Assembly: GCA_964016885.1 (NCBI GenBank)
Contig: OZ024756.1
Coordinates: 38,254,001 to 38,318,000 of the forward strand
Source: Eledone cirrhosa
Taxonomy: Eukaryota
Direction of reading: 5' to 3'
Length of the DNA stretch: 64,000 nt
The position numbers and the translations under genes were made by a program. The notes beneath the pieces were generated by a model. The model was given only the letters and a program-made list of their open reading frames with translations. It did no database searches and had not been told where the DNA came from. Shown piece by piece: positions 6,667 to 62,805 of the stretch (positions within the stretch are counted from its first letter, which is position 1; each line of letters begins with the position of its first letter).

Positions 6667-7128
6667 TATATATATATTGCCTGTACAGGTAATCAAAGTG
6701 TGTATACATCTTGACACCTTTTATATAATATTCTGTGTGTATGTATAATGTTATGTGCAGGAGTCTGTTGTAAAGTGTAGAGGTGGTTGTGGTAGTAATA
6801 GTGGTATAAGTGGAAGTAGTAATAGTAGTAGTAGTAGAACCAGTTACTTTAGTCTGGAGGTTTAGTAACAATGGCCTATTAAGTTAAACAGGATATTAGT
6901 ACTAACTCTTTTATCTTTATTCTTTATTAAGGTGACAAATTGCCAAGGGTGACAGGTAGAATCCGAGGTGGTTTTACATACTGAGCCCAAATCCCGCCCA
7001 GGTCGACTTTGCTTCTCATCCTTTTGGAGTTAAATTATTACCAGTCATGTACTGGGGTCGATGTAGCACAAATCGTTGGTCTAGTGTCTAAACTAGAAAT
7101 CATCATCATCATTATTATTATTATCAAG

Positions 7129-7252
7129 GGCCATATCACACTGAAAACACCGGTTTTCGTCCGATCACCGAAGTTAAGCAACATTGAGTCTAGTTAGTAC
7201 TTAGATCGGTGACCACTTGGGAAACCTAGGTGCTGTAAGCATTTAAAAAAAA
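7129..7252 (+). pseudogene. 5S rRNA processed pseudogene (5'-truncated, A-tailed)
   Basis: GGCCATATCAC...CGTCCGATCACCGAAGTTAAGCAAC...GTTAGTACTT...GGTGCTGTAAGCATTT matches metazoan 5S; lacks the first ~6 nt, carries several substitutions, is solitary and is followed by A8. Confidence 0.92.
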
Positions 7253-12715: not shown

Positions 12716-14390
12716 AAATTATTGTGTACAGTGCTCAGGTGCACTACAACTCGTCAAAGGTGCATGTATAGTACATAGAACAACGTACAAATGTCAGGGA
12801 AGTGAATAGTGTATGAGTCGTGATATACACACATGCAGATGCATGTGTGTGTGTATGGAGGGGGAATATTAGGTGTAGTGTTGGCGAATCTCAGGAAGCA
12901 TGGAGGTTTTAAAGGATGCAGTGTCTCGACAGCTAATAACTGATGCAGGGAGTTTGTTCCATGGAGGTTTTAAAGGATGCAGTGTCTCCACAGCTAATAA
13001 CTGATGCAGGGAGTTTGTTCCATGGAGGTTTTAAAGGATGCAGTGTCTCCACAGCTAATAACTAATGCAGGGAGTTTGTTCCATGGAGGTTTTAAAGGAT
13101 GCAGTGTCTCCACAGCTAATAACTGATGCAGGGAGTTTGTTCCATGGAGGTTTTAAAGGATGCAGTGTCTCCACAGCTAATAACTGATGCAGGGAGTTTG
13201 TTCCATGGAGGTTTTAAAGGATGCAGTGTCTCCACAGCTAATAACTAATGCAGGGAGTTTGTTCCATGGAGGTTTTAAAGGATGCAGTGTCTCGACAGCT
13301 AATAACTGATGCAGGGAGTTTGTTCCATGGAGGTTTTAAAGGATGCAGTGTCTCGACAGCTAATAACTGATGCAGGGAGTTTGTTCCATGGAGGTTTTAA
13401 AGGATGCAGTGTCTCCACAGCTAATAACTAATGCAGGGAGTTTGTTCCATGGAGGTTTTAAAGGATGCAGTGTCTCGACAGCTAATAACTGATGCAGGGA
13501 GTTTGTTCCATGGAGGTTTTAAAGGATGCAGTGTCTCGACAGCTAATAACTGATGCAGGGAGTTTGTTCCATGGAGGTTTTAAAGGATGCAGTGTCTCCA
13601 CAGCTAATAACTGATGCAGGGAGTTTGTTCCATGGAGGTTTTAAAGGATGCAGTGTCTCGACAGCTAATAACTGATGCAGGGAGTTTGTTCCATGGAGGT
13701 TTTAAAGGATGCAGTGTCTCCACAGCTAATAACTGATGCAGGGAGTTTGTTCCATGGAGGTTTTAAAGGATGCAGTGTCTCGACAGCTAATAACTGATGC
13801 AGGGAGTTTGTTCCATGGAGGTTTTAAAGGATGCAGTGTCTCGACAGCTAATAACTGATGCAGGGAGTTTGTTCCATGGAGGTTTTAAAGGATGCAGTGT
13901 CTCCACAGCTAATAACTGATGCAGGGAGTTTGTTCCATGGAGGTTTTAAAGGATGCAGTGTCTCGACAGCTAATAACTGATGCAGGGAGTTTGTTCCATG
14001 GAGGTTTTAAAGGATGCAGTGTCTCCACAGCTAATAACTGATGCAGGGAGTTTATTCCATGGAGGTTTTAAAGGATGCAGTGTCTCCACAGCTAATAACT
14101 GATGCAGGGAGTTTGTTCCATGGAGGTTTTAAAGGATGCAGTGTCTCCACAGCTAATAACTGATGCAGGGAGTTTGTTCCATGGAGGTTTTAAAGGATGC
14201 AGTGTCTCCACAGCTAATAACTGATGCAGGGAGTTTGTTCCATGCTTCAGCAACTCTGAGTGTGAAAAGATCTTTCTGAAAGTCATGGGAGCTGTGCTGT
14301 TTTCTGACTTTGTGGGCATGCTCACGTATGTTAGACACATGGAAATCAAAAAGGTACTCAGGGTTGTTGTTGGCAAGATGGTTAATAATT
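12716..14390 (-). mobile_element. CR1-clade LINE 3' fragment containing an internal tandem expansion
   Basis: Minus ORF HAHKVRKQHSSHDFQKDLFTLRVAEAWNKLPASVISC..ASFK resembles the CR1 ORF2 C-terminus; the 3' UTR ends GTAGTGCACCTGAGCACTGTACACAATAATT. Confidence 0.85.
12899..14240. repeat. 61-bp minisatellite, 22 copies, derived from CR1 ORF2
   Basis: Unit CATGGAGGTTTTAAAGGATGCAGTGTCTC(C/G)ACAGCTAATAACTGATGCAGGGAGTTTGTTC; single-copy in the CR1 fragment at 54355-54740. Confidence 0.97.
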
Positions 14391-14664
14391 TAACTAAGCT
14401 ATATTAAAATGTAAAGGAATACAACCTGACCGACCTCCTGTCATTTTACCCTATAAAATATATATATATATATATAATCGTCATCATCATCATCGTTTTT
14501 ACATCCCGGCATGGGTTGGATGGGGTGTTTTGGGACAATGTTTTACAGCCAGATGTCCTTAACACCAACTGTTTTAGTTGCCTCTCTCTCTCTCACGAGG
14601 CACAGAGTGTGTCTATTCTAAAATCTGGGATACACAGAATGTATATATACATATAATGTATCAA

Positions 14665-21359: not shown

Positions 21360-21694
21360 ATCATTTCATTTTTCATTTCATTTTACGTCCACTTTTTCCC
21401 TGCTTGCAAGGGTGGGACGGGAACTGATGCTGGCTTGATTTCTACAGCTGGATGCCCTTCCTAACACCAACCTCATTTACAGTGAGTGCTGGGTGCTTTT
21501 TTGCCGTGGCACTTGCACGACCACTTTGCAGTGGAATGATATGGACCCCAGTCCCTATCATCTCATTTCTACAGCTGAGTAAACTGGAGCAATGTGAAAT
21601 AAAGTGTCTTGCTCAAGGAAACAACACATCACCTGGTCTGAGAATTGAACTCACAACCAAGGCTAATGTTCTAACCACTAAGCCATGTGCCTCC
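21360..21694 (-). mobile_element. Composite SINE copy
   Basis: Near-identical to 14665-14993 with a short deletion in the head. Confidence 0.85.
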
Positions 21695-21697
21695 ATT

Positions 21698-22800
21698 GTG
21701 TGTATTGTGTATATATCATACGACATACCAATATACCCAACTATAGTGTATATTGTATATATATCATATGACATACCAATATACCCAACTATAGTGTATA
21801 TTGTATATATATCATACAACATACCAATATACCCAACTATAGTGTGTATTGTATATATATCATACAACATACCAATATACCCAACTATAGTGTATATTGT
21901 ATATATATCATACAACATACCAATATACCCAACTATAGTGTATATTGTGTATATATCATACAACATACCAATATACCCAACTATAGTGTATATTGTATAT
22001 ATATCATATGACATACCAATATACCCAACTATAGTGTATATTGTGTATATATCATACAACATACCAATATACCCAACTATAGTGTATATTGTATATATAT
22101 CATATGACATACCAATATACCCAACTATAGTGTATATTGTGTATATATCATACAACATACCAATATACCCAACTATAGTGTATATTGTATATATATCATA
22201 CAACATACCAATATACCCAACTATAGTGTATATTGTATATATATCATACGACATACCAATATACCCAACTATAGTGTATATTGTGTATATATCATACAAC
22301 ATACCAATATACCCAACTATAGTGTGTATTGTGTATATATCATACAACATACTAATATACCCAACTATATTGTATATATATCATACAACATACCAATATA
22401 CCCAACTATAGTGTATATTGTGTATATATCATACAACATACCAATATACCCAACTATAGTGTATATTGTATATATATCATACAACATACCAATATACCCA
22501 ACTATAGTGTATATTGTATATATATCATACAACATACCAATATACCCAACTATAGTGTATATTGTATATATATCATACAACATACCAATATACCCAACTA
22601 TAGTGTATATTGTGTATATATCATACAACATACCAATATACCCAACTATAGTGTATATTGTATATATATCATACAACATACCAATATACCCAACTATAGT
22701 GTATATTGTATATATATCATATGACATACCAATATACCCAACTATAGTGTATATTGTGTATATATCATATGACATACCAATATACCCAACTATAGTGTAT
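21698..22800. repeat. 48-bp minisatellite array 1, ~23 copies
   Basis: Unit GTGTATATTGTATATATATCATACAACATACCAATATACCCAACTATA. Confidence 0.97.
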
Positions 22801-23128
22801 CATCATCATTTCATTTTACGTCCACTTTTTCCCTGCTCGCAAGGGTGGGACGGGAACTGATTCTGGCTTGATTTCTACAGCTGGATGCCCTTCCTAACAC
22901 CAACCTCATTTACAGTGAGTGCTGGGTGCTTTTTTGCCGTGGCACTTGCACGACCACTGTGCAGTGGAATGATATGGACCCCAGTCATATTTCTACAGCT
23001 GAGTAAACTGGAGCAATGTGAAATAAAGTGTCTTGCTCAAGGAAACAACACATCACCCGGTCTGAGAATTGAACTCACAACCTTTCGATTGCAAGGCCAA
23101 TGCTCTAACCACTAAGCCATGTGCCTCC
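22800..23128 (-). mobile_element. Composite SINE copy
   Basis: Shares ACTTGCACG and ATATGGACCCC with 21360-21694, variants not seen in 14665-14993. Confidence 0.85.
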
Positions 23129-25171
23129 GTGTATATTGTATATATATCATACAACATACCAATATACCCAACTATAGTGTATATTGTAAATATATCATAT
23201 GAAATACCTATATACCTAACTATAGTGTATATTGTAAATATATCATATGAAATACCTATATACCTAACTATAGTGTATATTGTAAATATATCATATGAAA
23301 TACCTATATACCTAACTATAGTGTATATTGTAAATATATCATATGAAATACCTATATACCTAACTATAGTGTATATTGTAAATATATCATATGAAATACC
23401 TATATACCTAACTATAGTGTATATTGTAAATATATCATATGAAATACCAATATACCCAACTATAGTGTATATTGTAAATATATCATATGAAATACCTATA
23501 TACCTAACTATAGTGTATATTGTAAATATATCATATGAAATACCTATATACCTAACTATAGTGTATATTGTAAATATATCATATGAAATACCAATATACC
23601 CAACTATAGTGTATATTGTAAATATATCATATGAAATACCTATATACCTAACTATAGTGTATATTGTAAATATATCATATGAAATACCTATATACCTAAC
23701 TATAGTGTATATTGTAAATATATCATATGAAATACCTATATACCTAACTATAGTGTATATTGTAAATATATCATATGAAATACCTATATACCTAACTATA
23801 GTGTATATTGTAAATATATCATATGAAATACCAATATACCCAACTATAGTGTATATTGTAAATATATCATATGAAATACCTATATACCTAACTATAGTGT
23901 ATATTGTAAATATATCATATGAAATACCTATATACCTAACTATAGTGTATATTGTAAATATATCATATGAAATACCTATATACCTAACTATAGTGTATAT
24001 TGTAAATATATCATATGAAATACCTATATACCTAACTATAGTGTATATTGTAAATATATCATATGAAATACCAATATACCCAACTATAGTGTATATTGTA
24101 AATATATCATATGAAATACCTATATACCTAACTATAGTGTATATTGTAAATATATCATATGAAATACCTATATACCTAACTATAGTGTATATTGTAAATA
24201 TATCATATGAAATACCTATATACCTAACTATAGTGTATATTGTAAATATATCATATGAAATACCTATATACCTAACTATAGTGTATATTGTAAATATATC
24301 ATATGAAATACCTATATACCTAACTATAGTGTATATTGTAAATATATCATATGAAATACCTATATACCTAACTATAGTGTATATTGTAAATATATCATAT
24401 GAAATACCTATATACCTAACTATAGTGTATATTGTAAATATATCATATGAAATACCTATATACCTAACTATAGTGTATATTGTAAATATATCATATGAAA
24501 TACCTATATACCTAACTATAGTGTATATTGTAAATATATCATATGAAATACCAATATACCCAACTATAGTGTATATTGTAAATATATCATATGAAATACC
24601 TATATACCTAACTATAGTGTATATTGTAAATATATCATATGAAATACCTATATACCTAACTATAGTGTATATTGTAAATATATCATATGAAATACCTATA
24701 TACCTAACTATAGTGTATATTGTAAATATATCATATGAAATACCTATATACCTAACTATAGTGTATATTGTAAATATATCATATGAAATACCAATATACC
24801 CAACTATAGTGTATATTGTAAATATATCATATGAAATACCTATATACCTAACTATAGTGTATATTGTAAATATATCATATGAAATACCTATATACCTAAC
24901 TATAGTGTATATTGTAAATATATCATATGAAATACCTATATACCTAACTATAGTGTATATTGTAAATATATCATATGAAATACCTATATACCTAACTATA
25001 GTGTATATTGTAAATATATCATATGAAATACCTATATACCTAACTATAGTGTATATTGTAAATATATCATATGAAATACCTATATACCTAACTATAGTGT
25101 ATATTGTAAATATATCATATGAAATACCTATATACCTAACTATAGTGTATATTGTAAATATATCATATGAA
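23129..25171. repeat. 48-bp minisatellite array 2, ~42.5 copies
   Basis: Unit GTGTATATTGTAAATATATCATATGAAATACCTATATACCTAACTATA, a variant of the array 1 unit. Confidence 0.97.
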
Positions 25172-25472
25172 TTAACAATTCACAAAAATCTGCTGCTTCA
25201 GGCTTACTCTTATTTGGGACTATACAATTATTGAGATTTGAGAAGCTTGCTTATGATAATTTGGTGAAAAATTACTAAGATGACAATTCAAAGTAGAAGA
25301 GGAATTGGGGAAAATTGGGTTTGTAAAGGTAGAAATGTGACCTAGGTCTCTGAGAAACATATGTTAACTCTTCTAATACTAAACTGCTTGGAACTGCTCC
25401 TGGTTCTTATGATTCAGAACTGTTTGTTTTAAACCAGCCATATTCGGGCAGAATTCTCTTACCTTTTTCTGT

Positions 25473-54354: not shown

Positions 54355-54740
54355 AATGATTGTGTACAGTGCTCAGGTGCACTACAACTCATCAAAGGTG
54401 CATGTATAATACATAGAATAATTTACAAATGTCAGGAAAGTGAACAGTGTATACACAGACACACGCATCCATGTATGCGTGTGCCTGGAGGGGGGATATC
54501 AGGTGTAGTGTTGGCGAATTTCAGGAAGCATGGAGGTTTTGAAGGATGCAGTGTCCCGACAGCTAACAACCGATGCAGGTAGTTTGTTCCATGCTTCAGC
54601 AACTCTGAGCATGAAAAAATGCTTCTGAATGTCATGGGAGCTGTACTGTTTTCTGATTTTGTAGGCATGTCGACAGGTGTTAAACATATGGAATTCATAA
54701 ATGTGCTCAGGGTTGTTGTTGGCAAGATGGTTAATAATTT
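54355..54740 (-). mobile_element. CR1-clade LINE 3' fragment
   Basis: Minus ORF HAYKIRKQYSSHDIQKHFFMLRVAEAWNKLPASVVSCRDTASFKTSM plus 3' UTR. Confidence 0.88.
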
Positions 54741-55433
54741 TGTGGGTAATTATATTAACCCAAGTATTTTATTCCACCCCCACCCCACTCCTCAGAAGAG
54801 TGAAGGGCAAAATTGAATTCAGCAGGATTTGAACTCAAAATGTAAAAGCCATAGCTATATGTCATGAAGCATGGCATCTGACACTCTACCGACACTGCCA
54901 ATCCACCACCCTTTTAAACTTGATAATAATAAAAGAAAATATTTAACCACTGAAATCTAATATTGTCTGTCAAGGTTTGAATTTTTGAAATTTGAACATT
55001 TTAATAGCGGTAGTTTCAGATATATTGATGTTTAAAGGGTTAAGGCTGGTTTTTGTTAAAATTGCTTCAAATAGAATTTCTAAAGTTTTAACCTGTCCAA
55101 AACCACCTTTGGCCCCTATGAAATAGAATCACCTATTTTAAAGGGTTCCTATTTAAATGAAACTTTCCAACATAATTTTATATAAGAACTGTTAAGCTAG
55201 TTAAAAATACCATCTTAATAATGAAAAAATAATAATAATATATTTAGTAAATTCCTCAAAATACTTAATTAATTAATCGAAAAACTGTATTTTTCTAGAA
55301 TCATGGTCACAAAAGTGTTGTTTATTATGTAATATTTTTTGATTTTATTGTAACTCCCACTGTCCCTGTCTTTTTTATTGTCCCCTATATGTTGGCCCTA
55401 GTGGCCAATAAATGAAACTATTATTATTGGCAA

Positions 55434-56090: not shown

Positions 56091-56130
56091 CCGCCATTAC
56101 ATACCTTTTCCTTTTGTGCGTGGCCTGGTT

Positions 56131-56196
56131 ACACAAACCCGTAGCTCTGGACTTGTGTTGAGGTTGGGTCACAAGCTCACGCTTATGGGTCAGTGT
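56131..56196 (+). ncRNA. mir-100: pre-mir-100 (miR-99/100, Mir-10-P2 family), divergent mature sequence
   Basis: 5p AACCCGTAGCTCTGGACTTGTG (56136-56157) is 19/22 identical to canonical AACCCGUAGAUCCGAACUUGUG with the seed intact; the 3p arm CAAGCTCACGCTTATGGGTC pairs with it and resembles miR-99/100 star strands; lies upstream of let-7 on the same strand. Confidence 0.9.
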
Positions 56197-56395
56197 CGCT
56201 ATGGTAACTGAAGTTTTAAGTAGTAGTCTCTCTTTCTATCTCTTTTATACATACACGTGTACGTGTGTATACATACATATATATATATATATATATATTT
56301 ATACATACATACACACACACACACACTCACACATATATACATACACATATATATGTATATATATATATATATGTATGTATGTATTTTCTTCACAG

Positions 56396-60813: not shown

Positions 60814-60896
60814 TCCCAGACTGAGGTAGTAGGTTGTATAGTTAAGAAATACACCATTTCAAGGAGGACTGTACAACCTTCTAGCTTTCCCTGGGG
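60814..60896 (+). ncRNA. let-7: pre-let-7 microRNA
   Basis: Exact mature TGAGGTAGTAGGTTGTATAGTT at 60822-60843; star CTGTACAACCTTCTAGCTTTCC at 60869-60890; basal stem CCCAG/CTGGG; CNNC (CAAC) ~17 nt downstream of the 3p arm. Confidence 0.99.
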
Positions 60897-62042: not shown

Positions 62043-62357
62043 TGTCACAGTTAATATCATTTTAATAACCAGATATATTCGTAATGTGAAAACTAAAGAT
62101 TTTATTTATTTATCGTGAATAATTCTGTACATAAATATAACAAAAAAGATTATAATTGAACAATATATTGAGAAGGGAGACTTGCTGACTCTTATAATGG
62201 CTGGTCTTCCATAAACCACCCTGTCCAGTGTTGGACCTTGGTAGGGGAACTTTCCTCATGAAAGCCCATAATAAGTCATGACCAAAAGGGGACCTTTTAT
62301 AATAGGTCCCCTTTGGGATATAAATAATTATTTATATCACTTCATGCTCAAACAGTT

Positions 62358-62805
62358 ATATATAGATTATGAAATAACTTGTTAATTTTCATGGCCAGCC
62401 TTGCTAAAACATTTATATATCAAATATATAGATTATGAAATAACTTGTTAATTTTCATGGCCAGCCTTGCTAAAACATTTATATATCAAATATATAGATT
62501 ATGAAATAACTTGTTAATTTTCATGGCTAGCCTTGCTAAAACATTGATATATCAAATATATAGATTATGAAATAACTTGTTAATTTTCATGGCTAGCCTT
62601 GCTAAAACATTGATATATCAAATATATAGATTATGAAATAACTTGTTAATTTTCATGGCCAGCCTTGCTAAAACATTTATATATCAAATATATAGATTAT
62701 GAAATAACTTGTTAATTTTCATGGCCAACCTTGCTAAAACATTTATATATCAAATATATAGATTATGAAATAACTTGTGGATTTTCATGGCTATTCTTAC
62801 TAAAC
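62358..62805. repeat. 66-bp minisatellite, ~6.7 copies
   Basis: Unit TAGATTATGAAATAACTTGTTAATTTTCATGGCCAGCCTTGCTAAAACATTTATATATCAAATATA. Confidence 0.95.

Follow-up and report, generated by a model that had tools for sequence, protein, structure and literature searches.

A let-7-linked miR-100 gene with three non-seed substitutions in Eledone cirrhosa

Among the oldest animal microRNAs miR-100 changes little, and a miR-100-like hairpin with altered non-seed letters in Eledone cirrhosa raises the question of whether it is a functional, lineage-specific variant or a copy in decay. The window, here the whole stretch of 64,000 nucleotides that was analysed, contains a 22-mer that was compared with canonical miR-100, represented by filarial miR-100b (PMC6903752, Table 2; this and the other papers and supplements are cited from extracts) and by the consensus of Rfam RF00104. 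The Brugia counterpart of filarial miR-100b is identical to human miR-100 (PMC3384580).

56136 to 56157, forward strand: predicted mature miR-100 (Mir-10-P2 5p), ends set by homology

Mismatches were found only at positions 10 (A to C, at 56145), 13 (C to U, at 56148) and 15 (A to G, at 56150). The seed (positions 2–8) and positions 16–22 were canonical, and 19 of the 22 mature positions were identical. The original prediction had proposed three non-seed substitutions with an unchanged seed and 3' end, and this was borne out by the comparison with miR-100b and RF00104. By chance, 1.6e-4 sites with at least 19 of 22 matches to miR-100 would be expected in the window, where the runner-up site carried seven mismatches; a degenerate miR-100 pattern was matched once, against 0.03 matches expected.

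The RF00104 model (mir-10 family) aligned at 56129–56199 over model positions 1–74 of 74, with a score of 43.7 bits (E = 1.6e-9). This is lower than the RF00104 gathering score of 47.5, a threshold that is a database cut-off and not a biological criterion, and the miR-100 gene is consequently missed by a default Rfam scan, which in this window returned only a 5S rRNA-like copy and let-7. The remaining Rfam matches around the locus were rejected as microsatellite artefacts. Assignment to paralog P2 of the MIR-10 family was assessed by three features, all of which were found: the seed in the 5p arm, homology across the whole precursor and a same-strand position upstream of let-7.

60816 to 60894, forward strand: let-7 precursor, with the canonical 5' arm at 60822–60843 (Rfam)

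The let-7 precursor scored 58.6 bits with a 5' arm identical to the Rfam consensus, in agreement with the earlier statement that the adjacent let-7 is fully canonical. It starts 4686 bases (4.7 kb) downstream of the miR-100 start on the same strand, and miR-100 upstream of let-7 is the ancestral order (PMC3384580). Judging from this ancestral cluster, the two are probably carried on a shared primary transcript. The nine-base start of miR-125 had no match in the window, which ends 3.1 kb past let-7. In the MirGeneDB 2.1 sheets as extracted, the row below Let-7 is not Mir-10-P3 in either Octopus species. Taken together, these two observations suggest that miR-125 may have been lost from the cluster or moved to a distance from it.

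No host coding gene was found among 100 of 131 filtered open reading frames, which gave one sub-threshold Pfam match, and no tRNA was found in the window. The 5S rRNA-like copy (7123–7241, forward strand, 74.7 bits) has a poorly paired terminal stem, and an A-run comes after the copy, with SINE-like repeats flanking it; it is likely to be retroposed. Two 3' fragments of LINEs lie on the reverse strand, one at 54499–54768, whose closest named relatives are two Octopus vulgaris proteins (76–78% identical), and one at about 13665–14400, after which its own tail is repeated in tandem copies of 61 bases. The two protein matches point to an octopod as the likely source of the window. Minisatellite arrays at 21600–25200 and about 62330–62800 contain long open frames made of repeated units, which are not genes.

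The anatomy of the miR-100 precursor was derived from the predicted fold as follows.

56158 to 56171, forward strand: predicted loop of 14 nt between the arms, from the fold on the assumption of 2-nt overhangs
56172 to 56193, forward strand: predicted star arm, 22 nt, with 56179 (A) opposite position 13, 56177 (U) opposite position 15, 56181 (G) opposite position 10 and 56183 bulged, from the fold and the Rfam alignment
56120 to 56135, forward strand: lower stem, 5' strand, with the base at -6 (56130) unpaired, from the fold
56194 to 56208, forward strand: lower stem, 3' strand, with +4 mismatched, a G at +5 and, between pairs -10 and -11, the U at 56202 bulged, from the fold

The predicted precursor (56136–56193, with 2-nt overhangs) comprises 22 + 14 + 22 nt, with 18 of the 22 guide bases paired. 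MirGeneDB norms are arms of 20–27 nt, an adequate loop and about 19 paired bases (PMC11701709), and the predicted dimensions fall within these ranges. By the motif definitions in section 9 of the same paper, the mismatch at -6/+4, the G at +5, the bulge at -10/-11 and an apical UGU are present. The flanks contain neither a basal UG nor a CNNC, at -5 the lower stem has no C, and the bulge motif has only one of its two C-G pairs. On this model Drosha and Dicer would be expected to cut at 56136, 56157/56172 and 56193.

Part of the original argument for function was that the changed bases can pair with the star arm as C-G, U-A and G-U. All three pairs were present in the minimum-energy fold, C10 with G56181, U13 with A56179 and G15 with U56177. 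In the ensemble the pair probabilities were 0.80 for position 10, 0.46 for position 13 and 0.37 for position 15, and positions 13–15 were unpaired in the centroid fold. Folding at 15–25 C hardly altered these probabilities and did not firm up the pairs at 13 and 15. The Rfam register marks position 10 as non-pairing, and the ancestral register has a mismatch there; position 10 pairs only when 56183 is bulged, that is, with a one-base shift in register. The pairs proposed by eye thus stand in the minimum-energy fold, but they are marginal at positions 13 and 15 and need a shifted register at position 10. As modelled, the pairing argument is weaker than it was first made out to be.

The ancestral pairs were read by eye from the Rfam alignment and from the star arm that PMC7328434 gives for the snail. 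Against these, position 13 has passed from C-G to U-A with both sides altered, a compensatory change, and position 15 from A-U to G-U with one side altered. The star arm is predicted to have changed along with the guide, by substitution of the pairs at positions 13 and 15 and by slippage of the one at position 10. Folding stability relative to shuffled sequences was modest: z was -2.0 for 56120–56210 (8 of 200 shuffles as good) and -0.9 and -1.1 for two other cuts of the locus, compared with -4.7 for let-7. When the consensus letters were placed at 10, 13 and 15 in silico, the predicted probability of the upper duplex fell from 0.75 to 0.01 and ranked 62nd of the 64 combinations, while the native letters ranked only 16th of 64. 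This swap suggests that the 3' side of the hairpin, as modelled, is better matched to the variant guide than to its canonical counterpart.

Conservation was assessed with contigs from 4 of 23 listed sequencing runs; one run was only guessed to be RNA and was not counted as expression. Contigs of the best-matching organism, which may be the window's own sample, showed no differences over 56099–56260. The organisms behind the three outside runs are related and the runs are not mutually independent; the upstream block with which the hairpin was compared is a rough yardstick.

56107 to 56211, forward strand: near-invariant block in the three other organisms, with the whole primary hairpin inside (contig comparison)
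55902 to 55979, no strand assigned: upstream non-repeat block, 87–89% alike in the same three organisms (contig comparison)

Over the hairpin the three organisms showed 2/118, 1/107 and 1/105 differences, none of them listed inside the mature arm, whereas the upstream block carried 8/73, 10/78 and 9/78 differences (11–13%, gaps counted). The contrast was significant in each organism (Fisher p = 0.007, 0.0009 and 0.002) and the hairpin was about tenfold more conserved than the block. The likeness to the other organisms stops just beyond 56211–56216. The difference counts alone rule out the full set of canonical letters in any of the three organisms, and the empty table of differences for the mature arm, rather than a base-by-base reading, suggests that all three changes are common to these organisms. 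The upstream block lies ∼160 bases before the hairpin, shares the hairpin's contig in one organism and may serve the primary transcript as a regulatory element. A second hairpin within it was considered and rejected (z = 0.17 and -1.54).

These comparisons bear directly on two ways of dismissing the variant. The differences could be assembly errors or changes private to one species, and a long CT microsatellite 40 bases before the hairpin, which the compared contigs of the best-matching organism do not span, gives some ground for suspicion. Yet no more than one or two differences were seen over the whole hairpin in three other organisms, and the star arm carries changes that match those of the guide; this explanation is largely refuted and we give it almost no weight. 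Alternatively, the locus could be a copy that is relaxed or in decay, its role filled by a canonical miR-100 at another site in the genome. The sub-gathering Rfam score and the weak folding z would fit such a copy, and filarial worms do have divergent miR-100 paralogs beside a canonical one (PMC6903752, PMC3384580). Against this, the hairpin is far more conserved than its surroundings, the gene occupies the ancestral place before let-7, where Brugia keeps its canonical copy (PMC3384580), MirGeneDB 2.1 as extracted has a single P2 for each Octopus species (PMC8728216 supplement), and the window holds only one miR-100 match. Decay is thus very improbable, if less so than an artefact of assembly, and what mainly disfavours both is how little the hairpin differs in the three other organisms. 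The view of the original prediction, that this is a functional, lineage-specific variant and not a decaying one, is supported by that conservation and by the predicted processing anatomy more than by the pairing seen by eye.

The reading that we prefer, at a probability of roughly 0.8, is that the locus is the miR-100 (Mir-10-P2) gene of the octopod miR-100/let-7 cluster, its changes likely fixed in the ancestor of several species and its product a normal, seed-driven guide of 22 nt. It is likely that the variant is octopod-wide. Processing of the primary transcript would yield a guide of 22 nt that retains the ancestral seed and would act by seed-driven repression of mRNAs. With the seed intact the core targets should stay as they were, and a different reading would be confined to the minority of sites with 3' supplementary pairing.

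The catalogues were consulted for the same gene in relatives. In the extracted supplement of PMC8728216, MirGeneDB 2.1 has one Mir-10-P2 each in O. vulgaris, O. bimaculoides and Nautilus, with the row for this gene directly before Let-7 in both Octopus sheets. The Octopus genes (Ovu- and Obi-Mir-10-P2) resemble the gene in the window in name class, single copy and place beside Let-7, a match made by name only. In PMC9699675 conserved microRNAs were annotated from genomes, and Ovu-Mir-10-P2_5p had a coverage of 2544 in one vertical-lobe library; the mature product comes from the 5p arm, starts with A and is expressed. The searched portions of the supplements of PMC9699675, PMC8728216 and PMC11701709 give only names for Octopus Mir-10-P2, not its sequence. 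The gene itself is already catalogued for Octopus, and its single copy, its synteny and the sharing of the hairpin across organisms make it likely that the catalogued entries carry the variant found here. In the same MirGeneDB supplement Euprymna (bobtail squid) has no Mir-10-P2 entry, and miR-100 is absent from the squid miRNA list as extracted from PMC8125070; a squid copy, more diverged or unassembled, may have been missed so far.

Searches of full-text literature with 15-base pieces of the variant gave no match, and 11-base pieces matched 14 papers, which by title are on nematodes or unrelated. No discussion of a diverged cephalopod miR-100 was found in topic searches, whose coverage did not extend to subscription journals, and the extracts of PMC6962438, PMC12506671 and bioRxiv 10.1101/2021.09.01.458616 hold nothing on the variant. 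The miR-100 of this window is best described as a real, mildly unusual and probably known variant.

With canonical bilaterian miR-100 and RF00104 the gene has in common the seed, positions 16–22, its origin from the 5p arm, the shape of the hairpin and the place upstream of let-7. It differs from them in the three non-seed changes with matching changes in the star arm and in its sub-gathering score, and the cluster differs in the 4.7 kb that separate it from let-7 and in having no miR-125-like start in the 3.1 kb that follow. Divergence of this kind has precedents: sea urchin mir-2003 and tunicate mir-1473 are likewise orthologs of miR-100 in let-7 clusters with lineage-specific divergence (PMC3384580), although these are independent lineages and the likeness is one of description. 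Biomphalaria miR-100 keeps the seed and is changed at position 11, not at 10, 13 or 15 (the sequence printed in PMC7328434), so the triple change is not mollusc-wide. Filarial miR-100a and miR-100d also keep the seed with non-seed changes, and miR-100d shares the C at position 10 (PMC6903752); unlike the gene in the window, these are extra paralogs. Divergence in nematodes is the subject of bioRxiv 10.1101/2024.07.19.604269.

The three changes differ in how unusual they are. Position 10 falls in the hotspot at positions 9–12, where changes are common; positions 13–15 are conserved more strongly than any other non-seed stretch, and change without duplication is rare (PMC5204344). The changes at 13 and 15 are transitions and would form G-U wobbles on a site of the ancestral type; the predicted pairing energy of positions 12–19 goes from -9.6 to -6.9 kcal/mol on such a site and is -10.5 kcal/mol on a matched one. 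Wobbles within Argonaute are weaker than energy models of this sort predict (PMC8940178). Within positions 13–16 a CG has been swapped for a GG, both dinucleotides being named as the likeliest to support productive 3' pairing (PMC8940178).

It is conceivable, on this evidence, that selection favoured the changes as a retuning of 3' pairing, such that positions 13–16 now match new supplementary, compensatory or decay-triggering sites and the target set or the half-life is altered. The rarity of such changes in the absence of duplication, the exchange of one favourable dinucleotide for another, the modelled loss of energy on ancestral-type sites with a gain on matched ones, and the near-invariance of the variant across the compared organisms would all be in keeping with it. 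Supplementary sites, however, make up only ∼5% of conserved mammalian sites, and pairing at 13–16 gave only about a twofold gain for let-7a (PMC8940178). Nor is conservation today proof that the original changes were adaptive. Selection for retuning is on balance doubtful, though it deserves much more weight than decay. In its boldest form it would hold that the 3' half of the sole octopod miR-100 was rewired by a star-matched triple change that was then frozen, with CG exchanged for GG in favour of new 3'-compensatory targets or a decay trigger. That scenario is speculative and we consider it improbable to the same degree; if true, it would amount to a change of function, so far unreported, in a microRNA among the most ancient of animals, and would let the purpose of non-seed conservation be tested in nature. 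Under the preferred reading of a normal, seed-driven guide, the small share of supplementary sites makes a shift at a few targets the likely effect. A shift in 3' supplementary pairing, as raised in the original prediction, is plausible.

For surveys of the family, the variant is missed by exact-match searches and by the default Rfam cut-off, and probes for canonical miR-100 would have three mismatches to it. The gene also bears on the question of why ancient microRNAs preserve letters outside the seed. As a single-copy miR-100 in which positions 13 and 15 changed and were then refrozen, it offers a natural comparison for this question, between the 3'UTRs of octopods and those of other molluscs.
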